Below are positions 1 to 39,144 of a stretch of 45,437 nucleotides of DNA, in pieces. Each line of letters opens with the position of its first letter. The stretch's first letter is position 1. The position numbers were made by a program, and so were the translations under genes. Source of the DNA: Asterionella formosa (taxonomy: Eukaryota); the NCBI GenBank assembly GCA_002256025.1, contig NKIB01014258.1, positions 1 through 45,437 on the forward strand, in the 5' to 3' direction. The notes under the pieces are model-generated. The model had not been told where the DNA came from and ran no database searches. It saw nothing but the letters and a program-made list of their open reading frames with translations.

Positions 1-25
1 GGTACCAGGGTACCGGGTACCAGGG

Positions 26-401
26 TGATAAAATATATGGAATCCAATGAGTCGAGACTCAATATTCTTAGTAGTGATTAGAAACCAAGACCCAAAACAT
101 GCGACACTTATTGACAAATGACTGGAGATGTTTACTTATTGACAAGTGAATCAGATGCTCACTTATTGTCAAATGAATAAGTGATGCTCACTTATTGTCA
201 AAGTAAGCAAGATCATTTTGATGGGATCAAGGAAAGTGTGAGAAGTCTTGTTCAGGATTACATGAGTAATCAGGCAAGAACAAGACTAGATAGACTATTA
301 ACAGAAAGCTCACAATATTACAAAGTGTTAAGTGAAAATAAGTTTTCAGCTTTAGTGATCTTTAAAGTAAGATCTGTGATATTTCAACTAGACAATTTAA
401 C
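26..401 (+). repeat. 5' LTR (right boundary approximate)
   Basis: Starts TG and aligns with 4686-4949 over about 270 nt. A plausible CA end (AATTTAACA at 401) precedes the gag ATG at 434. Confidence 0.75.
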
Positions 402-433
402 ACGTTTTATAATGAACCTACAGGTCTAGAGAA

Positions 434-3400
434 ATGGTTATGGCCAATGAGAAATCAGGTGAGACTGTTTGCTTGATCAAGTTTGATGGAAGCGAAACTG
501 CTTGGCATGAGTGGAGTATCAAGACTCTTCAGCTTGCGAAATCTAAAGGTTTTAGGCATCTTTATGCCAAAGACACGAAGCCAATCAATGATGATGCCTA
601 TTTGGTGTCTACTGATGATGACGAGAAGAAGAAGTACAAGTTGAATGACAAGGCATATCAGCTATTGATTCTTCGTGTCAGTGGGATTGCATTTGGGATT
701 TTTACTGTTGCTGAAGGAATGGGTACTATTACTTTATCAGATTTGAAATCTAAACTTCGTGCATTCTACAAAAGAAAGTTCAAGGATTTAAATACCAACG
801 AGATTGCTTTGTCTGCAAATGGTAAATTCAAGGGACTATGCAAGAATTGTGGAAAACAAGGACACAAGGCAGCCGACTGCCGATCCAAGAACAATACAGC
901 AGGCGCAAACAAAGAAACGAAAGGCAAAGGTGTCAAATGTTTCAATTGCAACAAGTATGCAGGTCACATTGCTAAGGATTGTCCTGAAGAAAAGAAAACA
1001 AAGGAAAAGAAAGAAACTGGAATGTTTGTTGGTATTGTTGAAACGATCGAAATTCATGATGAAAAGTCTGATACAGATGATGATTTTGAAATAATTGACT
1101 TGACTACAAACAACAAGACGTTTTTTGACTATGAATATGTTGAAGACACAAAGGTCTACATTACATGCGAAGAAACAGAAAAAGAGATCAATCAAGCACA
1201 ATCTGCAAGCATCAAAAACAGTGAGAGTAAAATTTGCGCATCAAGCGAGGAAAATGAACGTTGGTTAGCTGATACAGGCGCAACCAGTCATATTACTATG
1301 TGCAATAATTATATGACAAATGTGAAAGCAGTAAATGTACGCGTTGTTATAGGCGATGGTAAAGAATTCATTTGCAAGGAAGGCGGAGATGTCTGCGTGC
1401 AAAACAAAGTGACCAATGAGACTCTCTTGCTTAAGAATGTCATATATACACCTACCTTTCATAAAAATATTATCAGCATTGGTACTTTTTTACGTGATGG
1501 TAAATACGAACTAAGTATGAAGCACAACAAAATGACTTTGACAAAAGCGGGAAAAACTGAGATGCTAGATTTCAAATGATGTGATCATTCGGATGTTTTG
1601 TACTATTTCCAAGGAACTCGTGGAATTTACCCAGGTGGGAGTGATATCTTATCTGCAGAGGTCATCACAACGAAATCGACCAGTATGGACATTAATGAAG
1701 CTCACGCTAAATACAAACATATTGGGGAAGCAGCATTGCGGGCTACTATGAAATTGCTTGGTATCAAAATGACAGGTGTGATGTATACATGTGAAGGATG
1801 TGCGCTAGCTAAGTGCTAAAGCAAAAAGTGTTCCTAAAATGACTGTGAGCAAGGCTACTCAACCGGCTGGGCGAATGTTTGTGCACAGATATCAGCGGTC
1901 TATATAAAAAGTCGATTTTAGGAACAAATGACTATTGGATCCTTGTTGTTGACGATTACACCGGAAAATCTTGGAGTTTCTTTGTTAAGAAGAAGTCACA
2001 GGTTGCTTCAAAGATTGAAGATTTGTTGACTAAACTCAAAACGGCTGAGTATGTTACCAAGTTTCTCCGTTGTGACAATGCGGGTGAAAACGTCTCAGGT
2101 TTGACAAAGCTATGTGACAAATTCAATATTCAAATTGAGTTTATGGCACACTACACGCCACAACAGAATGGAATTGTTGAGCAAAAGTTTGTAATCATTC
2201 GTCAACGAGCATGTGCAGCAATGTTTGCTGCAAAATTTAATGATGAATTTCAAGGTTTACTTTGGGCAGAGGCCATCAACACCAACACACGAATCACGAA
2301 CATTGTGGCCACATCTAATGATGTAAAAAGTGCAGATGAGAAGTTTTACAAAAAGGTTCCAATGATTTACGATCATCTAATGCATTTTGGCAGGATCGGA
2401 TGGGTGAAAATTGGTGCTAAGAAAACAAATAAACTCGAAGAAAAGGCCATTAAATGTGTGATGGTTGGTTATTCTCATGATCATGCTGGAGAAACTTACC
2501 GAATGTTTAACCCTCAGACACGAAAGATTTTAAATAGTCGAAACATTTCCTGGGCTAATTGGCATGGCCAAACAAGTCCAATCGCAGGTTTGAGGGGGGT
2601 TTTCAATGTGGAAGGGGAAACAGAAGTGGTTGTTATTCCAATTGATGATGAAAAGCAGGACGAAGATGTTATTCCTGCTGTCGTGCCACCTATCCAGCAG
2701 GAAATTGATCTGGAAACACCTGTTCCAGTTGTGAAACAAACAAGATTTCAGCTATCCGAAGCAGAGGGGAAGTTAGATGATGAGATCAACAAAGATGCTT
2801 CGAAGAAAGCAAAATTGGAACGAGAATTGAAACGACGCCTTGATGGTTGGAAAGAAGTTACTGGCAAACGCACCAGTGCTCGGCGCAACATACAACTAGA
2901 TGACAAGGACAAAGGATCAATTGAAGGAATCGATAATGCTGAATCGGACTATCAACAAGATGATTATGAAATATTTCAAAGTGAAGAAGGAGTAGAGAGG
3001 TTCTATGTATATTCTACTACTCTTGCTTCAGATCCTGGTGAGCCAAAGCATTACAAGAAGGCTAGTATGAAAGTAGATGAGAGCAAGCAGTGGACCGTTG
3101 CTATTAAAAATGAAATCAACAACTTCTACAAGCGAAATTTTTGGAAAATGGTTCCTCTTGACAATCTCAATGGCAGAAAACCGTTAGGCACACGCTGTGT
3201 ATTCAAGAAGAAGTCTGAACAGGATAAAAGTATTTGATACAAAGGATGTATTGTAGTGAAATGCTACATTCAGATCCCAGGACTGGATTTCACTGATTCA
3301 TTTGCTCCAGTTGCAACAGATGCTTCAATGCGTATGATATTCGCTCTCTCGTTCTACAAATGGGATAAGTCTGAAGAAATACGATGGGTTTGTGAAATCA

Positions 3401-4685
3401 TTGATGTTGAAGCTGCTTTTCTTGAAGGAGACATGGAAGAGCAAATCTATATTGAATGGCCAGATGGGGTTTTAGACTTTGTTTTCGAAACAAAAGAAAC
3501 AATGAAAAACAAATGCATTAAGTGGAGAAGGCCATGTATGGCACAGTTCAAGCAGCGCTACAATTCTTTAAGAAGATGGTTCAAAACTTAACCAAAGCAA
3601 GTTGGAATGCGACAAAGCAAGGTCGATCCATGTGTTGTATTCTTCATCAAGGAAAATAATGCACTAATCCTAATAATTGCCACACATGTCGACAATTGGT
3701 TTGCAGTTGCTGGAAAGCCAAATAATATTAAATGGTTCAAAAATGAAATCAAGAAACACTTCACAAGTAAGGAGCTTGGCCCTTTGAAAAAGCATTTGGG
3801 AGTGTGGTACAATTGGGGCGAAGATAAAGTGGGACGGTACTTGGAGTCGAGCATGGAGGATTTTGTGCATGTTATGCTCCAAGATTCTCATGATCTTTTT
3901 GGAAAGTATCCAAAAGATGCATCAACCCCAGCATTTCCAGGAATTGTTCTCAGAAAGAATCCAGACAAAGTGACTCTCCATAAAGAATATCGTTCAATGG
4001 TTGGAAAATTGTTGTATTTTGTGAAGAAAGTTGGACAAATATGCGCGAATGCATGTCGTGAACTTTCTCAACATTTAGAGAATCCAGGTGATGCCCATTG
4101 CAGTGCTGTTGAACGTTTGTTTGGTTTCATTGCAACTGATGAAAGGAACAGAAAATTATAAATGAGACCACCAGCACATGAATTACGAGTTCAAGATGTG
4201 GTAGACAGCTCATTTGGGGACAATCCACCAGATACTAGGAAATCGACAAGTGCATATTTGGGTACGATTGGTGGTGCATAGCTAGTGAATTGGATTTCGA
4301 AAGGACAGAAGATTGTTACTGTTTCCAGCACTGAAGCAGAGTATGTGGCTCTATCAGATGGATCAAAGGAAACTACTTTTATGATGAATCTACTCAATGA
4401 AGTTGAATACGTGGAAATAACCAGTATCATTGCAGAAGACAATACAGGTGCAATTTTTCTATCAAAGAATCAGCAGGTTGGTTCACAAACTAAGCATATT
4501 GATGTGAGATATCATTTCATTCGAGAGAAGGTAAAGGCTGGGGATATTAGAGTTGACTATGGAATACTTTGAAGAATCCCGCAGACCTACTTTCAAAGAA
4601 TGTCACTCAAAAAATTCATGACACTCATGCAACCCACATTACTATGAATGGGACTATGGATTGTTGGTTTCGAGATCAGGGAGGG
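434..4685 (+). pseudogene. copia gag-pol polyprotein, disrupted
   Basis: Zn knuckles CKNCGKQGHKAADC and CFNCNKYAGHIAKDC; protease WLADTGAT; integrase HAKYKH..CEGC, VVDDY, LRCDNAGE, TPQQNGIVE; RT DVEAAFL and HVDN; RNase H SSTEAEYVALS, EDNTGAI, KHIDVRYHFIRE. Stops at about 1579, 3237, 4161 and 4281, plus frameshifts. Confidence 0.93.
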
Positions 4686-4949
4686 TGATAAAATATATGA
4701 AATCCAATGAGTCGAGAATCAATATTCTTAGTAGTAGTGATTAAAAACCAAGATCCAAAACATGCGACACTTATTGACGAATGACTGGAGATGTTTACTT
4801 ATTGACAAGTGAATCAGATGCTCACTTATTGTCAAATGAATATGCTTACTTATTGTCAAAGTAAGCAAGATCATTTTGACGGGATCAAGGAAAGTGTGAG
4901 AAGTCTTGTTCAGGATTACATGAGTAATCAGACAAGAACAAGCAAGACT
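4686..4949 (+). repeat. 3' LTR, truncated
   Basis: Near-identical to 26-295. Similarity stops after GTAGACTA (about 4949). Confidence 0.88.
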
Positions 4950-7707: not shown

Positions 7708-7958
7708 TGAGGACTGGAGAGGATGATGAGCCAAACCACATTACTTTAGCTGGTACGACATTATCCTACCAAGAAATTTAAATAAAGGAGCCTAACAGAA
7801 ACAGTACATATAATAATTAAATTTACATAGTCAAAAGGGTTACTATTTAAATTACAAGGGCATTTATCAAAATTATTAGATGATATAACGAAAAATTATG
7901 ATCAGATGATCATAATCCTATGATGCATCATGGAAATATGATGGTTTTATTTTGCAGA
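7708..7958 (+). repeat. ~250-bp dispersed repeat, copy 1
   Basis: Near-identical to 35657-35910 (TGAGGACTGGAGAGGATGATGAGCC...TTTGCAGA). Confidence 0.93.
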
Positions 7959-10799
7959 AGATGTCACATGGAGCGCTGTTGCTCCGTCCTGTTCACCACG
8001 CATTGATTCAAGGCAGCGATCAATTTACCGGTATGTACGCACTGACGGCAGAATCTCACCAGCGTATAAATCTATTTTTTGCCGGCATTATCATTATGTA
8101 CAACCATTAAAACAAATGAAAAGCTATGTTGTTATTAGTCCTCTGAGTAGAATAGATTATTTGCTAGTATATTATGAAACGAATTTTATTGTAGCTTGTA
8201 TACTTGTTTAGATATAGTCGAAAATGTATAATCGGAAAACTCACAATGGCGCTCAACACTATCGATGATTTCTCGATCCCTCTTTGTCGCATCAAGATGC
8301 AACACTTTCGAACAGATGCGCCATTCTACGATAAAACATAATCTACTCGAGATTACATTTTAAAAACCCATTATTCATTCATAATTCAATATTTAAACAA
8401 AATTGTCTTTCATCGTTGTCATGGCTTCTTGGTCAATCAGCAGCATCGTCATGATGCTTACCTGTTACCATTACCAGGTTATCTCCAGCAGTTACTATTG
8501 TATGACCTATATGTTTTATGTATGAGAATTGTCAAACAACAAGTGGAAGGCTGTCACGCGATAGACCTAATTAAATATTTCTCAAACCGTCACGAAAAAA
8601 ATGGAAGATCAAAATTTCCTCATGTATGTGTTAAAAACCAATATACTGAAAGTCATCCTTTTGAGGCAAAACGATGACATCAGAATCTTTTATATCTCAA
8701 GAAATATTGAGCTCACCCAAGTTATAATTAGATCTAGTAGTACCCGAGAGGATGAGCTACAATAACCTTCAAACTTGCTTCAACATTGCCATGTAATCGG
8801 ACTAAAATAATTTGAGTCGTAATATAGGGTAAAATAGGGATGACTCTCAGTTTTTATCCCCCCCCCCAAGCAATTCTTCTTCTTCACACCCTGAATTTTG
8901 TTAAAGTAACTTTTTAGATACATCTTTATCATTAGACAAAGGAGGTTATAGATAGAGACATTTGTTTTTCTTTCGTTTCTATTTTCTTATTGTGAGTTAC
9001 TAAACTAGTTAGATAGACCCATGTCTATCTCACACTTACTGATCATAGGTTTATAATCAGTGATCATTCATTTCAAACTATCGATCTTCCGAAATAGCTT
9101 ATATCATTCCAGCTCATTGTAGGTAGACGAATAACAAGGTTGAACGTGTGGCTGATGAGAGCTTGGTACATCAAAATTGACTCATTCGAATCATTTGACT
9201 CATTTGAATCCGAGTCATAACTACGTAGATGAGCTCACTTTAAGAGACTTCTTTCTCGGGTGGACCACACCCAACCATACCTAATACAGAAAGAACTGAT
9301 AATGCGTTGCAAGGCGGACGAGGATACGACAAAAAATATTGTTACTATACTAGGATGAACACAAAATTTAAATAACAACTCACAATCACTTCATTTCAAC
9401 TTCAAGCAAATGATAGAATGTAGATGAAATGATTAGTGAATATAATAAATAGCTAGCAATTTGTAGTCTCAGTGCTACTAGTTCTGTCGACAATTATTGA
9501 CAGCATTCAATAATGGCATCATTATTGAAAGCTTCTTCTGGCAGATGCTTGAACCAAATTCCCCCATTTATTTCAATAACTAGCAATTCATTTGAATCAA
9601 AGTTTCAAAATCAGAATTTTGATCGCAAAATTATAGTCTTAAGTAAATCTATCCAGACTACTAGCTGGTATGAATAATCTTGCACAATGAGCAGAGCTTA
9701 GCTATGATATGCACTTCCATCGCTCATGAAGCCCTTTGTTGAGGAGTCTATTATTAAAAACCTGATGGAGTTCAATCATCACTGCCTTATATAATTCAAT
9801 GAATCATGTTCTTTCTTCTTTTGTTTGCATGTTTATCAAGCCAACCTGATTTACCAGCTTGCAACAAATGGTGGACTCCCAGTGAGAAATATACATCATG
9901 GTGACAGAGAAGCCACTAAGCTCGGTCGTTTCCATCATTCAACAATCAAAAATGTGCTGGAGTTACAAATATTAAAATTGATCATTATTAGGCAGCAAGT
10001 ACATTCTAAGGAAGGGTCTAGAAAGGAGAACAGGGTGGTTAATCGATGATTGCTGGCAATCAATTGGGCTTGAATTTGGCAGAATTGACAACGAAAACAA
10101 ATGATTCATTCTCCATACTAGTTTTGTAAACAGAATTGATCAGACAACTACATAATCAAACTAATATTTACAAGGCTGTAACTTATGATCGTTAACAGCC
10201 TATGTTAAAAACCACATGCCACACATGCAACGAGCTGTTAGGATGGTAGCTGCTTTACCAACATGCAACCAACGCAACATACCACAACACAAAGTTCACT
10301 TACAATTTCTCTGAAGAGCTAGAAAGTATATTAAAGAATGAATATGAATTATGGATTTTGTTTGATTGCTTTGATGAGCTTTATAGTGCAGGAATACCAA
10401 AGGTGAGCTGTGGTAAACTGCAGATCAATAATATATGGTTTCGCAATATTGAATGTTTTTTAATGATTGTGACAAGGACAACGAAAAGTTCATGCCAACA
10501 ATATTCTTTCCAACTCTGGGATGTACTTAAATGATCCTCTGGTACTTGATATTCCATACCCCAGTCATACTTACAGGTATTGTTATCAATCTCCCATTAA
10601 TAGAAAAATCTAGATTTTCCGGTCTTTTATCTACGTGTAGAACCATCATACCAGGTAAATGTAGTAGGGCACCAGGAACTGGTACTGTACCGGTAACCCA
10701 ATGCATCATGTACCAAGATCAATCTATACACCTGAATCCGTCATCCGTTTTACACTGTACAAAAGTATTGAAGGCAGCAAGTCATTATTAGGTTTTCCT

Positions 10800-20118: not shown

Positions 20119-20489
20119 GGTGAATCAAGGGTTCTTTGATAGGCAATCGGAATGTGATGGGCGTCTTTCGGGTTGCTTTGTCGCGATCCTTTTTGTTCAA
20201 CGTTAGTCGAATAAGTCCTACAGACAACTTTGCCTGATGCCCTGGCATATGCCCAAGCAAATGCCCCGTCGTACTGTATGTAGGTACTAGTACCTGGTAC
20301 GGAGTACCCAGTATGTTTTCTAGTTGCTTTGCTGTCATGCATACCGGTATTCTTCTTGTCCACCTACATAAACGTTCCTCATTTATCTATGTATGGGTAT
20401 GACGATAATCAATACTACATTGAGTCCAGAAACACCCGCACCGCCCAACCCATTCCTTGACGACGTCAGGATGATGTTCGGATTGATAG

Positions 20490-20497
20490 TGACGTCA
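20490..20497. promoter_or_regulatory. TGACGTCA bZIP (CRE/aureochrome-type) motif in a divergent intergenic region
   Basis: Perfect palindrome at 20490-20497, with TGACGACGTCA at about 20458-20468, between divergent starts at 20118 and 20662. Confidence 0.35.
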
Positions 20498-20661
20498 TCA
20501 TGTGGCACCGGAAAACGCACTTCCTTGATCTGATGCATATTTAATCCTCAGCATGCATCGGCCTGATTGGTTAATATACCGGTATTGCAAGATGCATGGA
20601 TGAAAAATCGAGGAGAGGTTGGGAATCTCCTGCGTGGTCAAGTTGACTCTTCCCCCCCCCA

Positions 20662-21573
20662 ATGGCGATACCACTCAAGGCAAAAATGTCTCCATCGCAC
20701 TCTCGAGTGTTCAATCTTATTGTGTCATTACTAATTTTATGGCCAAGAGCGCTGCGATCCTTTCCTCTCGGTAGAATCCACTCAACAGGATGGACAACGA
20801 CCAGAACAAGTGTTCGTTTCTCATCACCGGAACACTTTGTTCCTGACGTTGAGGTTGTCACCTCCATGCCGGAACCTTTGCCTGCTAATCTTAAGAACAC
20901 CTACTACATGCTGCGCCACGGTCAGTCGACGGCAAATGTACAAGGCATCATATCCTCTGCGCGAACATTGGCCTATTCGAGCAAACATGGCCTGACTCAA
21001 CTGGGGTATGATCAAGGCCGTCTTGCAAGCCATCAGCTCCTTGACTTGATAGCACAAGTAGGCAAGGGCGAAAGAATCATTATGATATCATCTCCCTTTG
21101 CCAGAGCTCGTCAGACAGCACAGGCATGCTTAGATGGCCTTGTCGATGACTGTTCGGAACAAGTCCAATCTATGGGCATTCGCATACAGACAGAAATACA
21201 ATTGGAGGACCGCTTGATGGAAAGATACTTCGGTCGACTCGATGATGAAGCGATATACACGTATGCATATGTTTGGCCTGTCGATAAGTTCAATGTCACT
21301 CACACAGCCTTTGGTGTTGAATCTGTGGCTGCAGTTGCGACGAGATTGAGAGACGTTGTGTTGAGTCTAGAAGAAACGTATTCCGAATGCCATCTTGTTC
21401 TGGTGTCGCATGCCGATGTGCTTCAAATATGTCAACTTTACGCAGCCAACGTAGAGAATGTGGGCATGTTTAGCAGCTACCGATTTGTAAATGGTGAAGT
21501 TCGAGTTATGAAACGAACTCCTAATTCGCTTCCAGAACCGAGTCCCTTGCAGGCCCCAAAGCGAGGGACATAG
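20662..21573 (+). CDS. Histidine phosphatase / phosphoglycerate mutase-family protein, probably plastid-targeted
   Basis: LRHGQS, SSPFARARQTA, LMERYFG and VSHAD motifs. Hydrophobic leader ends LRS-FP. The start may be the second Met (20686). Confidence 0.92.
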   Translation: MAIPLKAKMSPSHSRVFNLIVSLLILWPRALRSFPLGRIHSTGWTTTRTSVRFSSPEHFVPDVEVVTSMPEPLPANLKNTYYMLRHGQSTANVQGIISSARTLAYSSKHGLTQLGYDQGRLASHQLLDLIAQVGKGERIIMISSPFARARQTAQACLDGLVDDCSEQVQSMGIRIQTEIQLEDRLMERYFGRLDDEAIYTYAYVWPVDKFNVTHTAFGVESVAAVATRLRDVVLSLEETYSECHLVLVSHADVLQICQLYAANVENVGMFSSYRFVNGEVRVMKRTPNSLPEPSPLQAPKRGT

Positions 21574-21732
21574 GCTTACATCATATTGAGCGCTAAATAA
21601 TAAATTAAGTAGAAGCTGACAGTAACGGAATTCTATACTAGCGATTGAATTGATAGCATCGCTTCTGGTGGCATGCTATTTGCCCTAGCTTGTTTTTGTG
21701 CACAGAATAGAAAGTGCCCCGCCCTTGAGTAT

Positions 21733-22246
21733 TCACATGAGTTCCTCAATCATCTCTTGCAAACGGCCTGGATTGGCACCCATCAATCGATCAATCACTT
21801 CACCAGCCTTGATAAAGATAAAGGTAGGCATGGCAGACACGCCATATTTGGCAGCCGTTTCAGGATTTTCGTCCACATCAACCTTCAAAAAAACAACGTT
21901 GGCGAAATCCTCAGACTCCGAGAGCTCCTTGTAAAAAGGGGAAATCTGTTTACAAGGACCACACCATGTGGCACCTGGCCAATACAATCATGAGAAGGTG
22001 GGTTGCGCACTTCTTGGAAGTCACATAAACATCCTACTTACTGAAATCAATCACCACAAGCTGATTTTCGGAGCCAGCTTTTGAAAGAATGTCTTGAACA
22101 TTTTGTAGTGTTGTTGGCTCTAGAACTTCGCCACCTCTCGTTTGAAGCGCAAGCTTGGAGACTCCGAAGAACGATGGGCACTGAGATCTTGGAGGAGTTG
22201 CCACTGCTGAAGCCAACAATAGGAAAAGTGTCAAAAGGCGCGTCAT
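21733..22246 (-). CDS. Thioredoxin with signal peptide, 148 aa, two exons (22246-22042, 21974-21733)
   Basis: Intron GTAAGT...GGCCAG restores VVIDFS-ATWCGPCK; also FLKVDVDE and MPTF. Leader MTRLLTLFLLLASAVA followed by a transit-like segment with RGG. Confidence 0.92.
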
Positions 22247-22669
22247 GGTTAATTTTCTTGAAGAGTGAAGGAATGTGATGAGTGGAAGTTTGTTAAAATT
22301 TTCGTTCATGAAGTATGATCGGATTTGTCAATTTTATTAGCCGTTTAATATACAATGTATGTCCGTCCGCTGATGGCATTTAAAATGTATGCCGTATGGC
22401 TGGTTGCAACCTGAAGATCAATATATAGTAGGATACATGTAGGCCTTAGGGCCAATCTTAGCAGAGATACAAATTATTTTTTGTTGTATCTTCAGAAAAA
22501 AATGAATCTTTACAGAGATACATTTCACAAATATATCTCTGTAACGGTAAAACAGTTAGCCGTTTTCTTTATGTCTCTGCAAACATGTGGATCAGACTCA
22601 GCAAAAATATTTGCTATGTGAGTTTCAATTATTCAATGTGTCTGACCATTATCATTGCTGTAACAACAA

Positions 22670-22960
22670 TGACAAATCGACCGGAAGAACCTGACAGTTG
22701 GGATGTCATTGACAATCTTGATAAAGAAGCAGAACAACAGAGTTTTTTGTTAATTGCAGCAGTTAGTACATTATCATTTTTGGAGTCCTATGAACAAAAC
22801 TCGAAGCCAGGAGTGCGAATTCCAAAATGGGAGCATTGATGAATTGACTGAAATGAGCATGTCACAAAGCTTCTTCACGAGAATAGATTTCATCGTGAAT
22901 ATTGCATGTCTCTTGAAGCTTTTCAACCAACTTCTGGAACTCCTTCAACATTCCATCACA
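22670..22960 (+). pseudogene. Harbinger (DDE_Tnp_4-type) transposase N-terminal stub
   Basis: PKWEH**ID*NEHVTKLLHENRFHREYCMSLEAF parallels TKWEHERMSWHSHFKKLCNEDAYEKTY in the 34098 transposase. Confidence 0.65.
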
Positions 22961-22962
22961 TC

Positions 22963-23046
22963 ATTGGTGGTCAAGAAATTTTGTCAGGGGCTCAGAGTGT
23001 TCATGACCCAGACTTGTTGGAAGAGCGGGCCAAAGCATGGGGAATC
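22963..23046 (+). pseudogene. Aspartyl-tRNA synthetase fragment (about 28 codons)
   Basis: GGQEILSGAQSVHDPDLLEERAKAWGI matches the eukaryotic AspRS segment G(E/Q)EILSGAQR(I/V)HDP.LL.ERA...GI. Confidence 0.8.
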
Positions 23047-23115
23047 GTTGTCAGAAATGATTCGACAAATATCATGACATTTTTTACCTTACTGAGACTT
23101 TTAATTATAGAGTTT

Positions 23116-23668
23116 TCACCAGTAGGCTCGTTGCTGCGGTTGCAAATCAATAACCAGAATTGTCATGTTATCTCCGCCAATACCTTGGGTAGATCGAGGA
23201 TCTTCACTAATGATTTCATCTAGCATCTCAATTCCAATCTCTACTGCTGGCGTCTTGGTGTCAATTCGCTCTCTAACATATTTTACCGCCTGTTCGTTAG
23301 TAAAGCAATCCCAAATACCATCACAACCCAAAATCATTTGGATGCAGAATCACCTGAACAATATCGGGTTCCGCTGTAATCATTTGTCCTGCTGGGGGAG
23401 TTCCAGGAACTTGTTTATATTTCAGATCACCAATGGATCGAGAAACAAGGTTCAAGTTTCCATTCACACGCCCGAATTGGTTGAGAAATCGACCAGCCTT
23501 GTGAATTCTATCCATTTCTCGATCTTTCTGTGGTTTGTGGTCGAAACTTAATGCTTCCGTATTCCCACCCGCCCTACAAAGGACAGCTCGGGAATCCCCA
23601 GTATTCGCAACAGTTAGTGTACGTCCAATGAGAACCGCCACGATTGCTGTACAGCCGGCATGAACTTG
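23116..23668 (-). pseudogene. Protein phosphatase 2C (PPM1G-like) C-terminal half, frameshifted
   Basis: VHAGCTAIVAVL, VANTGDSRAVLCR, LSFDHKP, RVNGNLNLVSRSIGD, ITAEPDI, ILGCDGIWD, GGDNMT. No N-terminal half; frameshift at about 23337. Confidence 0.92.
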
Positions 23669-23669
23669 G

Positions 23670-24435
23670 GAGCCGTTGCAGCATTTCTTTTCCTCTGATT
23701 CTTGGGAGGCCGTCCCTGTTTCTTAATAATCCGGTGGGATCTTTTAGAATCGTCATCCAATAAAATATCAGCAGGAGCTGTAGATGTAAGTGCAGATAAT
23801 TGGGAAGGAAATAATTCGGAATCTGTACTTGAGTCATTGGCATTCTTCTCTGGCTGGTAGTAGAAAGTTGCTTTGATAGTAGTAGGCGAGGAGATTTCCT
23901 TGTTGATGATTCAGGAGTAAAGGGAGAGCCTTTTCTTTTCAGATACTTCTTTAGGCAAGGAGACAACCTTGTTGATGATTCAGGAGTAAACGGAGCTCCG
24001 TGTCTTTTCAGATACTTCTTTGGTTCTTTTGATGACTTTTTGTTGTTGTGCCCCATCATGTCTCAAAGATCAAGAGTCTTTAAGCAATTCTTAGTAAGTT
24101 TTATCATTATCATCTTTTTTTCTGTATCCAGCGATTTTAAAGTGAATGCAAATACGACGAAGTTGTTGTAGCAATATCTGTTGAATGAGCATGTCTTTTA
24201 TCGTCCTCAAAGACCCTTTGCTTGTTGTCAATGAAAAAATCAGCAGGAGTGATACATGAAACCCACTGGTCATCCTGTTTTCTTGCTGCAAAGTAAGTTT
24301 CATGGTCCGAAGATTCAAATGATGCCATTGCGCAAGTCGTTTACAAGTGATGAAAGGCATTATTCCATGAGAAGCTAGAGATAATAATAATTGCTGAGAA
24401 TCCCTCCCCCCAAAATTCATTTCTGTTGTTGCCAT
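23670..24435 (-). pseudogene. Harbinger partner-ORF 5' part, frameshifted
   Basis: ITPADFFIDNK..IKDMLIQQILLQQLRRICIHFKIAGY aligns with ILPDDFVLDSK..IKGVAMKQISVKVLRKICIRYKVSGY at 31427. Confidence 0.7.
23898..24021. repeat. Tandem duplication, 69-bp period
   Basis: CCTTGTTGATGATTCAGGAGTAAA...TTTTCAGATACTTCTTT occurs twice; encodes KKYLKRxGxPFTPESSTR twice on the minus strand. Confidence 0.9.
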
Positions 24436-24879
24436 TAGAGATAAAAATGGTGTCTTTGTTGATTAATTTAATTACATGACACATATTAATTTTATAAAAT
24501 TAGTGTTGCTTAACGCTGTATCTGCAGCGATACACACAGATACACATATCGGAGCAACAAAAGATGTGTTGCTGGAAGCAACATATCACCCGGATATGTG
24601 AGATACAAAAAATTCTGCGGAGCAACATGTCTTTGATTTTTTATCTTTGTTAAGATTGGCCCTATTAGAATTGGTTTTCTTTTGCATTTATTTTAATCAT
24701 TAATAAGATTAAAAAATTGTGATGCATTCAAAAATTGATGCAAATTCTTTGATATATATATATATTGCCCTCCACTCATTTCCCCTCAAAAAGTATGTAA
24801 CATCGATCTGTTGTCGTAGTTCATGTTTGTTGATTTTGCTGCTTGCTTCTTATTTGCTTCATTGCTCTGTTGTTCGCTA

Positions 24880-25600
24880 TGTTAGATTGTAGACATAGGT
24901 TGCCTTGCAAAAAGTTGTGTCGAAATTGAGGGCACAGCGGTGTGTTTTGATTTGTTTGACAAACTTCTCAATGCTGATGGGGTCTGCTTCATGTGTTGTT
25001 GTGTCAACTTTGCTGTCCATCCTGTCATCTTGTTGTTTGTCAAGATCTTTCCAAATCTTGAAATGTGCACATATATATTGCTTGTCTTGCTCGCCTTAAA
25101 AAAGTCTTAACCCTTTTGTTGTTAACACTTTGCTTGTCTGTCAGCATACTCTCTTTCACCACAGACCTGAAGTTCTCTTGACCCCTTTTTCTCTTCAGAG
25201 AAACCCGACTGTAAAAATTCTTGGCGCAAGCCCAAGAATACTTGATTCCCTCTCCTGCAAGTTCACAGTGACATTTCGCCGTTCGGCCAGTCAACAAGTA
25301 CTCCCATTTCCATTGTTACCATTGACTGCAATAGTGTCTCCTCTTCTTCGAAATCAAGTCAGCCAGTTTTCCATTAACGACTTCAAAGAAAAAAAATTCT
25401 GGACAAATCTAAATATATCCTGCTTTCCATTCATTGCTTTCTAACTCTTCAATCTCAATTTGTCAATAAATCCACGCTCCCAAAGTGCTTTTCTGCAAGC
25501 AACAGACCCTTTTTGCATTCGAAAACTTTTGCTTTAGTCTCTTCAATTGGTAAGTTGTGTTCTCGAGCCTTTGATTGTATTGCTTGCTTCTTACCCTTTG
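24880..25600 (-). pseudogene. IS630/Tc1-like DDE transposase remnant
   Basis: ALWERGFID (about 25490) and TAKCHCELAGEGIKYSWACAKNFY..KRGQENFRSVVKESM..RRARQ; homologous to 36332-36944. Confidence 0.7.
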
Positions 25601-28600
25601 CTCCATGTGTGGTTTGAATTTGTTTCAATTTTGACTTTTACTCCTCAGAGTACAATTTGCAGGGCAACAAAAGCTAACACTCTGCTCCTCATTGTACCCC
25701 TAAACAGTTTCATTGAATTTCGAATGGAAAAGTGCTGGTAGAGCCTTTTGATGTACATATTTTGAAAGCTTCATTCAATATCCTGTTTTTCTTTGGCATA
25801 TTGTTGAATACTCATGCATGCAGATGTCAGGGTTGGCGTGGTAGGAGGGTGATAGATCTTTTGAGTTTATTCTGAATTGGTGGAGCTTGCGGTGTTTTCG
25901 TAGATTGTGGTACCACCACTTGGAGACAATGTTTGCATGTGTGGCAAGTGTGAGAACAGTGCAACAATGTCCCCAGCCAGCTTCAGATATTCATGTCATC
26001 TTTTGCAATTTGGTGTGAGTGGGCAATGAATTAGCAATTTTGATGGATGTTACACCTGTGATGATGAGTGATGTTGTATCCTTGGTTAAGTGGGTTCAGA
26101 TTCTGAATCAATGATGGGAGGTATCCAGAGCTGGATTTATTTGCTTGCATAAAGATTTCTTTTCTTTTGTGATTGCATTCAGGGTGGACTCCTTTGGTAA
26201 AGGGTTGAAGGTTTTCTTGGCTTCAGGGGAGTGGCCCCATTGTGTTGTTTTTGGTTGCTGCTGAGAGTAGTGGATGATTGCAGGGTGAAAAATGACTTAA
26301 ATGGTGAGTCCTCTAGCTAGCTGGATGTCCTTTCTCAGTAATTTGGGTAAATGAAGCAGTAGCTGGTTCTGATGAAACATCAGTCCCCCCTTTAGCATTA
26401 AAAATTTACTAATACTAGCTAGTATTGGTACTTTTCCTTCTCCTTTGTCTTGAATTCAATTCTTCTCCTACTAGTACTAGACTAGTCATAATAGCTTTAC
26501 TATTGGAATCAAAACTAGTGCGTGCCGTAGAGAAACTGCTTTCTCCAATAGTCGAGGTGAATCACTACTACCACTAGATGATTTCAAATGACAATTACAA
26601 AATTTTCGACCGTCATGACCCCGATTTCCACTTCTTAGCAGCCTCTTCCATTTATATTCCCACTCAGATAATATACATACTATGTAGGAAGCTTAGGAAC
26701 TGCTGCTGATGCGTCTTTTCTGTGATATAAACAAGTACTTGCCTACTTTTTTCTTTGTTTGATACTCAAGTCGAAATATCATCACCTTCCTGCCTGTAGA
26801 AATCTCGATCTCATTTGCTTCCAAAGATAGATTTAGAAACACTGTATTGATATACCTTATCGATCTATTAGTAGTATTAACGTTTATATTATCGCCAAGA
26901 GAGTGCTTTCATGATGGACAATATTCTCTGAATTGATTGACCAGCAACCAAACACCATGAATGGCAGAGTCACTGATGGCAGCCATAACTGATATTCCTA
27001 CAACTTTTTGAATATCATGTGACAAGTGATTCCCCAAAAGCGTTCCACTCATAACTAGAAGAATGCATCTAAAAGCCTTTGGGGAATCACTTTTGCGCAA
27101 GTAACGGCGGCAATATTGAGCAACATGGTGAGGTGATCGAAGCAAAAAAATTGGCATGATATTCCTTACACCTATAGAGATAAGGATGATGTTTTGTACC
27201 AGTTCTACGTGGGCTACTGTAATAATTTTTTAGATGTAACCAGCTGTATATGGTTGCCCACAAGATCCAAATGGTGACGACAATCCAACAATAGGCCAGT
27301 CAACTTCCCCAGAGTACTATAAAAAACTGGTCTGCTTTTTGCACATTCTACAAAATTATCTGTCAACATATTCATGATGTTGTGGCTGCTGCTCGCGAAA
27401 TGATATTGACTTCAGGGGGTGCTGAAAGCAAACAAAGAAGCAAATTGATACTTACTTAGTAGTAGCTACTAGATGTGGAGCTTCATTATCCTGATCCAAA
27501 GGTTGCAGCTTCGCTTTGCATTAGAGGACCACCATGTAAGTATGTTCTTGCCAAGAAATGCGGTCTTTCAGACAAGTGGCTCCTGGAATACTAGTAGTAT
27601 GTTGTTCCAAACATTTTCGCACAGTGTCCACGTGCTCAGCTTTGAAGTTTGTCTGCCCAAATTTGTGGGCGTCTATTGATCTACCAGCTGCTCTGACATG
27701 GCAAACTTGGTCAGCATATGATTTAATCTCTGCATCTACCTCAAGACGAAAATCCTGTGAGAAACAGTTGGTTGAGGTCACTGGGTCAGAGGCAAAGCTT
27801 TATATTGACGAAATTAGCACTGAATTGTTGTAGACAGTCATAGCACGTATGATGTGTTATTTCTACAGGATATGTACCTACCGGTATATATGCATTACCA
27901 GTATGTAAGAAATGATCTACCAGCAGTGGACTACTTAGACTAGGATAAAGCATTTCAAATCAGTGGGAAAAATCGTCCACATTTTTCCGTCCATTGAGGT
28001 TGGCGTTTTTGTCCACGGTTAGCACCGGCCTTAAGTACCAAAAAACGCCTATTTACTTTCAACTTTAGCATCAAACGCTTAGTTATTTTTAAAAAGCACC
28101 AAAGGCTTATTTACTTTTTAACTTAAGCAGGAAGGGTCACGAGCACAAGCCAAGCCTCCATGGAAGCGTGCAATCTCTTGCACGACGCGCTCTCTCTCTA
28201 TATAAAGTTCTGTAAAATAAGCTGATAATATTTAACCCCCCAAATTTCTGTTTCCTGGTATGTACCGATAATACACTGCATACGTCATGAATCGAAATTT
28301 GGGCTATACAATAGAATGTTTTACACAAATTTGTTATAACGCGATCACTAAATGTACAATTTCGTTTTCTTAAATAAATAGATTTAGACCGGAGCAAATG
28401 TTTCTACCGGTACCTGCAAACGACAAGTGCTCCATCTGGTTGCATCTTTTAAGTCGTTTACTGGTACCGTATTTCATTTGTGACTGCGCGCGAGTGTGAC
28501 TGATGGGGCCAGTGTTAATTTTAAAAACACACATGACATTCAAATTGTGAATCCCATCTAGGTTCAAGCCTAAAATTATTCCCGCCCTGGTACGGCGGGA

Positions 28601-31100: not shown

Positions 31101-31426
31101 AGTTTAAATCTATGTCTGAACGTATGAGAAACGTGAGGTGATGATGATAATACCCAGCCGAGTACCGGTATATACAATGTACTGTACGAGCACCGTACAG
31201 ACTGTACTCGTATCGCCCTAAGCAAGTTCCGGTAATCTTGCCGTACTGAAGATTTAGCTATCTTTATCCTAGATTAAAATGTTTGTCTAAGGGTCGTTCT
31301 TATCATTCCGAATTTGTTACAACAGATCAGTCATTGGAATCTCCCTGAAGATACTACAAGCAAGGCAAATGGAACCACATAGTATGGAACCAGTCACACA
31401 AACGCAGACAACAACTGGCTGTTGAT

Positions 31427-32815
31427 GTGGAGACCACTGTACATCAAGATCGACCCAATACCTTCAACAATACAATGCAGTCTCTTGCTACAGATACTGA
31501 AGTCAATCGATTTGTTGATTCCCTCATACTTCCTGATGACTTTGTGCTTGATAGTAAAAGGACACAGGTGATTATCATCAAAGGTGTTGCAATGAAGCAG
31601 ATCTCGGTCAAGGTTCTCCGAAAAATTTGCATCAGATACAAAGTTTCTGGATACAAAAATGCGAAGAAGGCTTTCACTGTTGCTTTGATTGTTCGACTTT
31701 TGAAGAGGAGAGACAGCTTGTCACAGAGGATATACCCTAGATCTTTCAATGTCAATGAATCGGACATTGAATTGGATAGTGATAATGATAATCATCACGA
31801 ACATGGTTCAATTAATGATGAGGAATTCAAAGTCAATGAAGATTGCGAAGATGATAATGATGAAATGAATGACAAAGTTCAAGAGGCAACAGCAGTGCAG
31901 CCAAATAAGTCTTTGGTCGATCATCAGTTTGAACAAGAGGAAGAGAACCCTCCTGTAAAAAAGCGAAAAACAATAAGGCACAGGCAAAGTCAACTCCTCC
32001 AGATGCTGTGACCTGCAGCAACACTTATTTCCGTGTCATTAATGTCTACATGTGCAACAAGCATCGCAGTGATGTTTTGCGTCTATGTCAGCCACCAACT
32101 CTGGCTGAACTTGATGCAAGAAGATTTCGACACAAGTCCATTTTCGATCGACTTGTTGTCACATATATTGATGATGAGGATGACGACTGCACCATTCTAG
32201 AATTTTCCGAAGATGAATACTGGGACCAAGTGGGAATTGATGCTCTGACTACGCAAAAAATTTGATGTCCTCACTTCCAAAGACTTTTCATTGGTAATGG
32301 GATACATTAATCATCATTATCAAGTTGCCTATCGAAAAAACAAGCAATCAGGCAGTCATGATGATTTTGTCAACTTTGTTGAGTCACATCATTTCCTATA
32401 TTACTACCATCTTTGGTTGTGTCAAGTTCCGCATCTATTGAATTTTGCTGTACCACTGTTTCTAAATTATGCCTCCCGTGAGAGTATAGACATTGATGAT
32501 ACAGCTGCCACCACATTGTCATCAAAATCAAAGTCTATAGACATTGACGATATGGCTGCCACCACATTGTCATCAACATCAAAATTAAAATCTTCAAGTC
32601 TACAACTGCACCACGCAGAGAAAAATGATCTACTGGATGTTTTGTATAAGTATAATGTCCGACTAAGAGTTGCGCAGGAGGAACTGGAAGAACTCGAAAA
32701 TAAAGATTATGACTCTTCAAGTTCTGACATTGTCCAAGCTCGAATAAAAAAATTGAATTGTGTAAAAGAAAGCGTGATCAGGTCTTCAATCTCTTATCTC
32801 AAGGTGACACATTGA
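31427..32815 (+). pseudogene. Harbinger partner (putative DNA-binding) ORF, frameshifted
   Basis: Three consecutive ORF pieces (31427-32011, 32008-32265, 32291-32815) convergent with the transposase. Includes a 51-bp tandem duplication at about 32482-32584. Confidence 0.7.
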
Positions 32816-32869
32816 AATGAATAATATATTTTTTCAACAATCAATTATAATCTACATTAAATTTGATTC

Positions 32870-34098
32870 ATGCAATTCCAACCTTTTTCTTTCAATATTA
32901 GCTGGAGGTCTTTGCAAGCCCATGTTAGCCATTCTTTCAATAATAACATCTGGAATGACAGAACTACCAGGCATTAAACCATCCAATTTCTAAGTCGTTG
33001 GCAAATATCCCTTCCAAAAAATCCAGAAATATCCTCCTTATCAACTTTATTTTCGTCTATGACATAATTGTGCAATCGTGCACATAGCTCAAGCACTTTT
33101 GCAGTTGTTTCCAAGCCAGTTGTTAAGTTTTTTTAGAACAACCCATTTTGTCTGTAAGAAACCAAATGCCATCTCTTTCCAAATCCGTATCTGATGTGAA
33201 AGAAAGAAATTATAGGCATCTTGTGTTTGGTCATCACGCTGAGAACCAACAAATGGAACTAACATGACATACGACAATGTAGTATATGCTGCATCACCCC
33301 ACAAGATAGAAACCAGAATCAAATAATGTATTTTGTTGGGTAGAGCAGTTCTCTCAAACGCAACTTGATCACTGCTTCGTCCAGGAGCAATCACCCCAAA
33401 AATATATATATCTACTAGCTACTCTCAACATCACAGATAGCCTGAACATTGATACCATAAATGATGTAATGTCTAGAATATAAAGCTCCTGGATTGTTTC
33501 CACAGTCACGTTGCGTGGGACGACTAATTGTGGCTAAAAAACAATGGCACCAACACACCCTCTGATCAACTTTTCTGTACTCTTTTGTTCAAAGGCTAGC
33601 AGCCATAGCCAATTTCACCAAATCACTCCTTGTTTTGGGAAATATAATTTTCAGATAATCACACTTAAGCACAGCTTCAAGAAATAAATCTCGGCATCTA
33701 TAGATTGAAGCTAGTATGCTACATCCATATGCATGACAAATGTCAATGTAGCTGCCTCCAGCCAACCATCAAATGCCAATGGCCAGCACAATTTCTTGGT
33801 AAATGGGAGTAGCTGTACCGCACTTGGAGAAATTCCGAAGGGACGGTCAATAAGTCTTTTCATAAGCGTCCTCATTACACAGTTTCTTGAAATGAGAATG
33901 CCATGACATTCTCTCATGCTCCCATTTTGTCTTCCTCTTTTTAAATTTCGTTTCAGCCTCGAGAGCCAGATGACAAAGGATAAAGAATTGATCATGGTAA
34001 TCGTAATCAAAGAATATATGGTTGTTTTCATTATCAAAAATTTGATTACTGATGACATCATTACCATCATCATCATTGCCATCGTTCATCATTGCCAT
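32870..34098 (-). pseudogene. PIF/Harbinger DDE_Tnp_4 transposase, disrupted
   Basis: RGCVGAI, YGINVQAICD, APGRSSDQVAF, WGDAAY, DAYNFFLS..RI..EMAFGFLQTKW, CARLHNYVID; many stops and frameshifts. Confidence 0.9.
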
Positions 34099-35656
34099 CG
34101 TTGATATTGCTTCACGGCACCTTTAGTCCAATGTTGATCCACTTGTTCGTCGTTGTGCACTGACAATGATGACATGGTGCTGATTGCTTGTAAACCTGAA
34201 AGGGGACGATGGCAAGCAGAAGTATAAAGACGATTTTGCATGTCTGTGTTGACTCATGATGGCAAATCAAGAATTTAGCAGGTATGTCAGCTATATATTC
34301 CATACTGGTACATAATACGCGTAGTTTTCCTACATGGTTTTAGTACTGGAAAATCATCGAAATAGTCTGGAGGGAAGCCTGGAGGGATATGCACATGATT
34401 GTAGCCAGCCCGTAACCGTTGAATTTTTTGTGATACTTTTTGGTGATACAATTTCATCTTTATTTTTGTGGAGAAGAATGGATTTTTTCGGTTTAAATCG
34501 AGTAGCCATTGCATGATAGGCACTTTTTCAAAAAATATGATACCAAATCGAAAATGATCAGAACAACCTTAAGCAAAATGACCGCAACTTGCTGGTACCC
34601 TGGTACCAGGGTACCTATAAACGCATAAATAGATGCCTGAATGTATCATAGGAAATGTGAGTCGATGTTGTTAATACTCAGCCAAGTACAATGTTCTGTA
34701 AGAGCACCGTACAACTGTATGCGTCTGGCCCCTAGCAAGTTGCGATAATCTTTCTGAACTAAAGATTTACCTACTAAATATGGCTGGATGCATGATCGAA
34801 GAACATAAAGTAGCTCTCGTAGGCCTGGCACAAACCATCATTTCTAAAAATATAGCTAAATATTTTTCACGCAATGGTTCTCTTCTTGCGACAACCAGCA
34901 CCATGTTGATTGGGCTACATTTGTTCCCTTTGCTTCCCTTCTATGCCTTGTGTTTTGCAACATATCATGAGGACCATGTTCATAGTGCCAATCAGAAACC
35001 AAACCGCAAAACAGATGATAACAAACTTTCAGTTGTTTTGACGATATTTTTCTTTGGTGATGGCGGGGTCATCACAACGTGGGCACTGGATTCCGTCCGA
35101 CCTTCTCATTCACTACATGAACCAACAATACAACATCGGAAGTGACATGCTATTGACTAAGCGAACATTGATAACATACGTGAACAAGTGCTACCCTTCA
35201 ATGTCCTATGATCCCAATAGAATCATCATTCCAAGTGGCACTGTGGTGGACTTCTATAGAGCCAACGGTCAAGTCTAGAGCGTCCACTACAACCTATTTT
35301 TCTTTTCTGACCATGGTTCTCGTGCTCCTTTGTTTCCCAAGAACATCAATGTCGCTTCTTTTCTTAATAATAGCGTCACAAAGCGACTATTTGGGGGTTC
35401 AAGGCAAATTCGAATTGGAGAGGCGATGGATAATCTTGAATTTGGATCGCTCAACAGCAAACAAGCCAAAATGATGAACTCAAATGAAGCTGATAATCCC
35501 TCCATTGAAGCCATAAATCAACCTCAATCATAACCAACAATTTCGGATACTACAGAGCAAGGTCAGGCTCGTCTGAGCATAGATTATTGGAAGTCAGGTG
35601 AGGCCAGGACAAATGATGATTTTATCAAAAACACTCGGCGTTCCTCTCGACATGGC

Positions 35657-35910
35657 TGAGGACTGGAGAGGATGATGAGCCAAACCACATAACTTTAGCT
35701 GGTACGACATTATCCTACCAAGAAATTTAAATAAAGGAACCTAAAGGAAACAACAATACATATAATAATTAAATTTACATAGTCAAAAGTGTTACTATTT
35801 AAATTACGAGGGCATTTATCAAAATTATTAGATGATATAACGAAAAATTATGATCAGATGATCATAATTCTATGATGCATCATAGGAATATGATGGTTTT
35901 TATTTGCAGA
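35657..35910 (+). repeat. ~250-bp dispersed repeat, copy 2
   Basis: Near-identical to 7708-7958. Confidence 0.93.
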
Positions 35911-36049
35911 CGATTGTAGTACTCCCATGGTAGAAGTAATACCCAGCAAGTTTACAGTACTACTACCGGTAGGCTACTATATGAATTTTTTAAATATACA
36001 TGGTCAATTTGTCTAAATTCATAATTGTATGATTTAGACCATTTGAAAA

Positions 36050-38206: not shown

Positions 38207-39144
38207 NNNNNNNNNNNNNNNNNNNNNNNNNNNNNNNNNNNNNNNNNNNNNNNNNNNNNNNNNNNNNNNNNNNNNNNNNNNNNNNNNNNNNNNNNNNNNN
38301 NNNNNNNNNNNNNNNNNNNNNNNNNNNNNNNNNNNNNNNNNNNNNNNNNNNNNNNNNNNNNNNNNNNNNNNNNNNNNNNNNNNNNNNNNNNNNNNNNNNN
38401 NNNNNNNNNNNNNNNNNNNNNNNNNNNNNNNNNNNNNNNNNNNNNNNNNNNNNNNNNNNNNNNNNNNNNNNNNNNNNNNNNNNNNNNNNNNNNNNNNNNN
38501 NNNNNNNNNNNNNNNNNNNNNNNNNNNNNNNNNNNNNNNNNNNNNNNNNNNNNNNNNNNNNNNNNNNNNNNNNNNNNNNNNNNNNNNNNNNNNNNNNNNN
38601 NNNNNNNNNNNNNNNNNNNNNNNNNNNNNNNNNNNNNNNNNNNNNNNNNNNNNNNNNNNNNNNNNNNNNNNNNNNNNNNNNNNNNNNNNNNNNNNNNNNN
38701 NNNNNNNNNNNNNNNNNNNNNNNNNNNNNNNNNNNNNNNNNNNNNNNNNNNNNNNNNNNNNNNNNNNNNNNNNNNNNNNNNNNNNNNNNNNNNNNNNNNN
38801 NNNNNNNNNNNNNNNNNNNNNNNNNNNNNNNNNNNNNNNNNNNNNNNNNNNNNNNNNNNNNNNNNNNNNNNNNNNNNNNNNNNNNNNNNNNNNNNNNNNN
38901 NNNNNNNNNNNNNNNNNNNNNNNNNNNNNNNNNNNNNNNNNNNNNNNNNNNNNNNNNNNNNNNNNNNNNNNNNNNNNNNNNNNNNNNNNNNNNNNNNNNN
39001 NNNNNNNNNNNNNNNNNNNNNNNNNNNNNNNNNNNNNNNNNNNNNNNNNNNNNNNNNNNNNNNNNNNNNNNNNNNNNNNNNNNNNNNNNNNNNNNNNNNN
39101 NNNNNNNNNNNNNNNNNNNNNNNNNNNNNNNNNNNNNNNNNNNN
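38207..39144. other. Assembly gap (938 N)
   Basis: Run of N. Confidence 1.

Follow-up and report, generated by a model that had tools for sequence, protein, structure and literature searches.

The 45,437-nt contig NKIB01014258.1 of the diatom Asterionella formosa (assembly GCA_002256025.1), in the following called the window, very probably contains at positions 22447-24664 a non-autonomous deletion derivative of a PIF/Harbinger transposon that carries fragments of two host genes and is thus of the Pack type. We could establish its ends, the 5' stubs of both transposon genes, the superfamily, the host-like nature of the cargo, the exact base of the left cargo junction, and the presence of both ends and cargo in multiple copies. 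For the capture mechanism and for mobilisation in trans we infer a route by analogy with known elements. An earlier note on this DNA had proposed a Pack-type Harbinger element with two captured host fragments, and this interpretation is borne out by the ends, by both stubs and by the genic G+C content of the cargo. The parts of the element and of its insertion site are given below, where X1 is the probable source sequencing run, L001 a 1,158-nt metagenome contig and P0002 a 476-aa PP2C protein of a diatom.

22395..22446, no strand: repeat B, left piece; single-copy DNA ends at about 22395
22447..22473, + strand: left terminal inverted repeat (TIR), from inverted-repeat pairing, the sole pair in the window
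22474..22668, + strand: left subterminal region and 5' leader, high-copy, with a 16-nt local palindrome at 22510-22544
22669..22960, + strand: transposase 5' stub of the DDE_Tnp_4 family (PIF/Harbinger-type), about 97 codons, decayed, from relatives and profile search
22961..23046 (86 nt), + strand: AspRS fragment, cytosolic-type, about 28 codons from the internal part of the class II core, from protein similarity
23047..23115 (69 nt), no strand: AT-rich spacer, 27.5% G+C, which contains the joint of the two cargo pieces
23116..23689, - strand: C-terminal 41% of a PP2C phosphatase with its own stop at 23116-23118, from Pfam and the P0002 alignment
23700..24340, - strand: 5' part of the second gene (partner open reading frame, ORF), frameshift-broken, from similarity to ORF 31349-32011
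24341..24637, no strand: right subterminal region; 24240-24664 is 91% identical to L001, and the element reaches its top depth here (486,755 in X1)
24638..24664, - strand: right TIR, from inverted-repeat pairing; the same end is found in L001, followed by TAA
24665..25700, no strand: repeat B, right piece, high-copy (X1 depth 82,000-264,000), right limit approximate

The inverted-repeat search delimits a 2.2-kb unit at 22447-24664 with arms of 27 nt (22447-22473 and 24638-24664) that are 89% complementary. Base by base, 24 of the 27 positions pair, and the outermost 14 are identical. Inverted ends enclosing the unit had been claimed before, at a length of 22 bp; the ends stand, the length does not. 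A 21-nt end pattern with at most 3 mismatches finds just the two TIR sites across the 45-kb window, and none of 100 shuffled sequences contains any match. The hallmarks of PIF/Harbinger elements are a transposase of the DDE_Tnp_4 type, short TIRs, a 3-bp target-site duplication that is usually TTA/TAA, and a Myb/SANT-like second gene. At the window copy we read TTA before the left end and TAT after the right end, the same unclean pair of triplets that the earlier note gave. TTA/TAA is found on two of the three visible flanks, namely the left flank of the window copy and the end in L001, and not on the right flank of the window copy. The target site could not be reconstructed from sister copies of the target repeat, whose sequences differ too much at the point of insertion. 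Two subterminal motifs were counted, and neither enrichment is significant window-wide: AGAGATAYA has 3 matches, all at the left end, with 0.92 expected (6 of 100 shuffles reach 3), and GAGATAMA has 6 matches with 4.04 expected (22 of 100 shuffles reach 6).

The left arm is the N-terminal stub of a PIF/Harbinger-type transposase lacking its catalytic domain, because both a profile built on the stub and direct alignment lead to DDE_Tnp_4 (PF13359) proteins. The stub opens with an ATG at 22669 and contains three in-frame TGA codons at 22837-22851 and a frameshift near 22920. Searched as 94 residues with X at the TGA codons against 1.84 billion representative proteins, it gives 30 matches at E ≤ 1e-3, 13 of them at ≤ 1e-10 and 2 at ≤ 1e-30. 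Most of these relatives are short ORFs, 65-98% identical, which evidently are other copies of the same transposon family. One of them, P0149, is 98% identical to the stub and reads through the left subterminal region. The profile of the stub and ten relatives (A3) selects three proteins at E ≤ 0.01 from 5,328 longer candidates, P0173 (2.4e-39), P0174 (5.8e-31) and P0175 (2.7e-10), and all three contain Pfam DDE_Tnp_4 (8.7e-25, 9.7e-27 and 6.1e-16, respectively). Direct alignment of the stub with P0173 shows 49% identity over 37 aa (E 9e-12), and the close stub relative P0151 aligns with P0173 over 92 residues (E 6e-21). The + strand transposase 5' stub that had been described from the letters is thereby placed at 22669-22960. 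Pfam assigns no transposase family to the stubs, the L001 ORFs or the short relatives, because these pieces precede the DDE domain, and it finds no DDE domain within 22447-24664.

Two long proteins among the stub matches, P0159 (1786 aa) and P0161 (963 aa), are repetitive and were taken as spurious. Reading TGA as tryptophan was also ruled out. Q, R and W occupy these three sites in the relatives, and other copies differ there, so the stops reflect decay and not a variant code. In the stub relative P0143, the conserved N-terminal motif of the transposase is duplicated internally, which suggests that further rearranged derivatives of the family exist.

The left cargo junction is defined by L001. 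The first 452 nt of this contig are 91% identical to window 24240-24664 and share its terminal bases, after which TAA follows. Beyond this TAA, L001 contains a second, 5'-truncated copy of the family that aligns with window 22613-22960. The homology ends exactly at 22960, and L001 continues transposase-like where the window has AspRS. This alignment puts the junction at 22960|22961, and both depth and contig counts in the sequencing runs drop between 22931 and 22971. At 429-460 of L001, the right end and TAA are directly joined to the interior of a same-family copy without a left end, which looks like a nested or truncated arrangement. A second metagenome locus with the TIR pattern, L002, lies in phage-like DNA and matches by chance. 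The TIR pattern was found neither in viral contigs (0) nor in prokaryote genome contigs (0), and the transposase profile gave 68 pattern matches in viral contigs, 0 of them confirmed.

In the right arm, the start codon of the partner ORF lies at 24326-24328, and this start region is conserved in L001. The stub contains a 69-nt tandem duplication at 23883-24021. Stub and cargo meet somewhere between about 23690 and 23710; the number of variant-bearing X1 contigs rises from 14 at 23665 to 57 at 23710. By tblastx and BLASTP, the stub resembles ORF 31349-32011, which adjoins the second DDE_Tnp_4 gene in the window, with 36% identity over 39 aa (E 7e-08) and, in the adjoining frame, 50% over 14 aa (E 0.005). 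These two pairwise matches uphold the minus-strand partner-ORF 5' stub of the earlier note. Pfam recognises no family in the right-arm stub, and ESM Atlas look-ups of the two second-gene ORFs returned no usable match.

ORF 31349-32011 belongs to a second Harbinger-like element at window 31221-34593. A decayed minus-strand transposase is found there at 32855-33987 by tblastn of P0173-P0175, with Pfam DDE_Tnp_4 (2e-07) at 33089-33418, and a series of + strand ORFs at 31349-32815 is convergent with it. Candidate inverted ends of 21 nt lie at 31221-31241 and 34573-34593 (86%), and the end motif occurs a third time at 34734-34758. We detected no nucleotide similarity between the elements at 22447-24664 and at 31-34.6 kb; the two represent different families. 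Both follow the same plan, in which transposase and partner gene run inward from opposite ends. Given this shared convergent plan, one central deletion would account for the loss of both 3' halves in the element at 22447-24664.

The cargo between the two stubs reads as host-like coding DNA. The core of the AspRS piece has 24 of 27 residues identical to a diatom AspRS, and all 21 matches at E ≤ 0.1 among 150 candidates are AspRS proteins with PF00152 (best 8.1e-5). Pfam tRNA-synt_2 scores E 0.039 on this piece, under its cut-off. A word search with the stub and the AspRS piece together returned AspRS alone and no transposase. An apparent extension of the AspRS similarity upstream to read-through residues 65-74 was not accepted and is attributed mostly to chance: directly upstream of the core, 7 of 31 columns are identical, compared to 24/27 within it, and this stretch is transposase by homology. 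Past 23046 no significant similarity was found, only a weak tail to 23082 with 2 of 12 residues identical. The spacer that follows is possibly a donor intron or 3' untranslated region.

The PP2C piece is encoded on the minus strand from 23689 to 23122, ahead of its stop. Pfam recognises it in two matches (3.6e-36 and 1.3e-07) that together span profile positions 92-247 of 255. Aligned with P0002, it is identical at 94 of 121 positions over residues 283-402 and at 56 of 72 over 405-475, that is 78% over 283-475. Its two parts lie in different frames, with a frameshift near 23335, one extra codon and no in-frame stop; the frameshift may be the result of a deletion of about 11 nt. At E ≤ 0.001, 529 of 920 longer candidates are related to the piece; all 120 listed are PP2C, and the named ones come from diatoms. 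In prokaryote genome contigs, 154 pattern matches to the PP2C fragment were found and 0 confirmed. G+C content is 50% in the AspRS piece, 45% in the PP2C piece and 46% in the neighbouring genes, compared to 36-37.5% in the transposon arms. In total, about 740 bp of the 2.2-kb element are foreign DNA, and it is presumably the same genome that supplied them. Both fragments had been called from the letters, an AspRS fragment on the + strand and a C-terminal half of PP2C on the - strand. The former is real and short, and the latter is measured here as 41% of the protein.

The unit is inserted into another repeat, repeat B, of which sister copies without the unit exist. The repeat zone begins at 22395, 52 nt left of the TIR, where two contigs stop (22395/22393), one of run X2, 10,645 nt long, and one of X1. 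Another nine X2 contigs have their start at about 22395, with different upstream sequence, and X1 depth rises there from 718 to more than 160,000. Contigs of runs X16, X12 and X2 pass from 22436 straight into the sequence right of the element, and the joints 22423->24704 and 22423->24710 occur in both X1 and X2. Because of these contigs and joints, we regard the element as having inserted as a unit, for which they are supportive evidence. An ORF in repeat B (25040-25315, - strand) has no Pfam family.

Copy number was assessed in public sequencing runs. Of the 24 runs listed, 23 contain the stretch 22300-24800 wholly or partly, one of them at 0.80 of its words. Contigs of four runs (X1, X2, X12 and X16), all short Logan contigs, were aligned at 85% likeness to 20400-26700. 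The depths given are summed contig depths, which are not copy numbers and may include other organisms. X2 stems from an independent study, and its flank has 6 differences in 1,996 nt (99.7% identical).

Left flank to about 22395, single-copy: depth 718 in X1, 97.5 in X2
Transposon arms, by bin: 118,536-486,755 in X1, up to 14,112 in X2
Cargo bins 22932-23564: 28,336-52,721 in X1, 780-1,118 in X2
Cargo by position: 13,468-45,518 in X1, 182-1,665 in X2

These depths suggest that the ends are present at hundreds of single-copy equivalents in A. formosa. The cargo lies at about 15-50 single-copy equivalents, and the composite has apparently been amplified to some tens of copies. Within the cargo, the number of variant-bearing X1 contigs is 10 at 22971, 26 at 23157, 35 at 23527, 24 at 23564, 22 at 23602 and 14 at 23665, compared to 69 at 22878 outside it; in X2, cargo positions have 2-7 such contigs. 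At many positions in the cargo, almost every other contig has one and the same letter, which is absent from the window copy. At 23157, for example, the window copy has G, and T is found in 26 X1 contigs that hold 27,021 of a depth of 27,821. Cargo depth far above that of the flank and these shared variants are therefore read as tens of sister composite copies. The depth of the five listed X1 contigs that fall within the element or repeat B is 907-953, near the single-copy level. Parts of the stretch are without cover in X16. In X12, a freshwater metatranscriptome, contigs 91-93% alike to the PP2C cargo reach a depth of 24-37, compared to 6-8 on the flanking genes. These RNA contigs could represent donor mRNA, element transcripts or carried-over DNA, which cannot be separated here, and we make no claim on expression.

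Several observations weigh against a Pack-type Harbinger derivative. The window copy lacks a clean 3-bp target-site duplication (TTA/TAT), and the sides of the empty-site joints measure 22-25 nt, under the advised 30, which makes them supportive rather than decisive. The window copy has no catalytic domain, its superfamily is read from the N-terminal stub, and Pfam detects no Myb/SANT domain in either partner gene. The metagenome-contig scan for the TIR pattern gave two loci, of which L001 is the real one, and no autonomous element with these ends. The AspRS piece is tiny, at about 86 nt. AspRS and PP2C donor genes from the same genome were not seen; no PP2C match exceeds 79% protein identity, and the best come from other diatoms. 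The copy numbers are derived from the depth of short contigs, and none of those listed crosses either cargo junction or covers the element from end to end. The window also contains a run of 938 N at 38207-39144; if this is a real gap and not a withheld stretch, the assembly is gapped and the copy, as a member of a high-copy family, could be partly mosaic.

The last two points are also what an assembly artefact would lead one to expect, either a chimera of high-copy family members or a mis-join of gene fragments between non-contiguous ends. The ends occur at hundreds of single-copy equivalents, and the listed contigs over the region measure 164-571 nt. We nevertheless consider an artefact very unlikely. 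Of the 31-mers sampled from 22300-24800, 80% are present in the probable source run, and variants private to the window copy occur at a depth close to single-copy, such as about 800 of 27,821 at 23157. The cargo is multi-copy in two independent studies. Among the best-supported loose contig ends listed, beside which there are 1,032 others, none of strength falls at 22960, 23046/23116 or about 23700. In addition, the sharp left breakpoint coincides with the end of homology to the independent copy L001. A different history, in which the composite arose once and was spread by segmental or tandem duplication of repeat-rich DNA, as a dead element that was never mobilised, has in our view only a small chance of being correct. 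The unclean flanks of the window copy and the inference of copy number from depth alone leave room for it. However, single-copy DNA on the left extends as far as 22395, and other copies of repeat B lack a unit whose limits match the TIRs. With tens of copies and many shared differences from the window copy, a dispersed family fits better.

The PP2C piece might also be the remnant of a resident gene, with two transposon fragments landing independently on either side, a case that the earlier note had named as its refutation. The flanks without clean duplication would agree with this, as would the genic DNA just left of the element, which holds a thioredoxin-like ORF (by translation) and a histidine phosphatase gene. 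The case is a misfit to the structure and extremely improbable: the cargo pieces abut internal transposon sequence and not transposon ends, both pieces are multi-copy while the neighbouring genes are single-copy, and the whole unit is absent from the sister copies of repeat B. Moreover, the two arms complement each other as the 5' parts of a single element with two convergent genes, correctly oriented and with matching TIRs.

For the Pack-type Harbinger derivative, we propose the following origin. The parent element would have contained two convergent genes, a DDE_Tnp_4 transposase gene running from the left end and the second gene from the right end. In a single internal event, the 3' halves of both genes may have been lost and about 740 bp of foreign DNA substituted. 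The most likely route would be interrupted repair of the double-strand gap after excision, during which the strand under repair changed over to ectopic host templates; a process of this kind has been put forward for Pack-type elements and for filler DNA in plants. The copied templates would have been an AspRS exon piece and, in the opposite orientation, the end of a PP2C gene. The composite would then have been mobilised by transposase from autonomous relatives and amplified to some tens of copies. Mobilisation in trans is still possible because both ends and the subterminal regions survived. The window copy itself is one old, decayed insertion in another repeat. It encodes nothing functional, because the stub carries three stops and a frameshift and the PP2C piece a frameshift.

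Tourist-type miniature inverted-repeat transposable elements (MITEs) such as mPing are PIF/Pong deletion derivatives of a few hundred bp without host cargo. The element resembles MITEs in being internally deleted and, on the proposed origin, mobilised in trans and multiplied far beyond its autonomous parent, and its ends begin with a G/C-rich GGCC-like motif. In contrast to Tourist-type MITEs, it is 2.2 kb long and contains 740 bp of foreign DNA. Pack-MULEs, the gene-carrying Mutator-like elements (MULEs), belong to the Mutator superfamily and have long TIRs and 9-bp duplications; the transposase of the element described here is of the DDE_Tnp_4 family instead. As in Pack-MULEs of rice and other plants, according to the available text of PMC6446971, fragments of more than one unrelated host gene are combined in mixed orientations, amplified and present as non-functional pseudo-exons.

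The closest known relatives are Pack-PIF elements. In maize and rice, Pack-TYPE elements are described for the PIF/Harbinger, hAT, CACTA and Mariner superfamilies; TTA/TAA duplications predominate among the PIF members, in which interior sequence is repeated less often than the ends (PMC8903248, available text). Our element shares with the Pack-PIF elements as described there the organisation as a non-autonomous TIR element with conserved ends and host coding DNA inside, the occurrence as a multi-copy cluster, the less-repeated interior and, on two of three visible flanks, the expected TTA/TAA (PMC8903248). It differs from them in being located in a diatom, in keeping the 5' stubs of both genes and in the target duplication, which is not intact. 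Harbinger-like transposons of the same superfamily are present in the same algal group, in Thalassiosira pseudonana; the available text of PMC2806351 gives their presence and abundance and no gene-carrying derivatives. A preprint on a diatom MULE explicitly states that its element is not a Pack-MULE. Our literature search, outside of which subscription journals lay, brought up no description of a Harbinger element with gene cargo, or of any other Pack-type element, from diatoms or other algae. The kind of element is known, and the host lineage alone is new.

Further repeats are found elsewhere in the window. A Ty1/copia-like long terminal repeat (LTR) retrotransposon occupies 22-4942, with direct repeats at 22-284 and 4682-4942 that are 96-97% identical and zf-CCHC, Pol_BBD, SH3_retrovirus and a sub-threshold RVT_2 between the LTRs. 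A pair of repeats of about 255 nt at 7708-7962 and 35657-35914 is 94-96% identical and lies 28 kb apart. The N run at 38207-39144 is an assembly gap or a withheld stretch and gives rise to spurious long ORFs in all six frames.

A bolder reading, which we think unlikely, would be a still-mobile Harbinger family that shuffles host exon fragments in a common freshwater diatom, with inward promoters that transcribe both cargo strands and tens of copies from which double-stranded RNA could arise and adjust the activity of the parental PP2C and AspRS genes, as the first such system outside land plants. If true, the left promoter would produce AspRS sense and PP2C antisense RNA, and the right promoter PP2C sense RNA. 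If the element has multiplied in this way, diatom annotators would have in it a tangible origin of spurious gene fragments of PP2C and AspRS. As a small non-autonomous element with defined ends, it would also be a possible start for diatom transposon tools. The understanding of how such elements work is unchanged. Exon shuffling and regulatory RNAs are recognised outcomes in plants when cut-and-paste transposons capture and amplify fragments of host genes, a process that has been studied almost solely there. A multiplied Harbinger example from a diatom would show the same repair-mediated capture in stramenopile algae.

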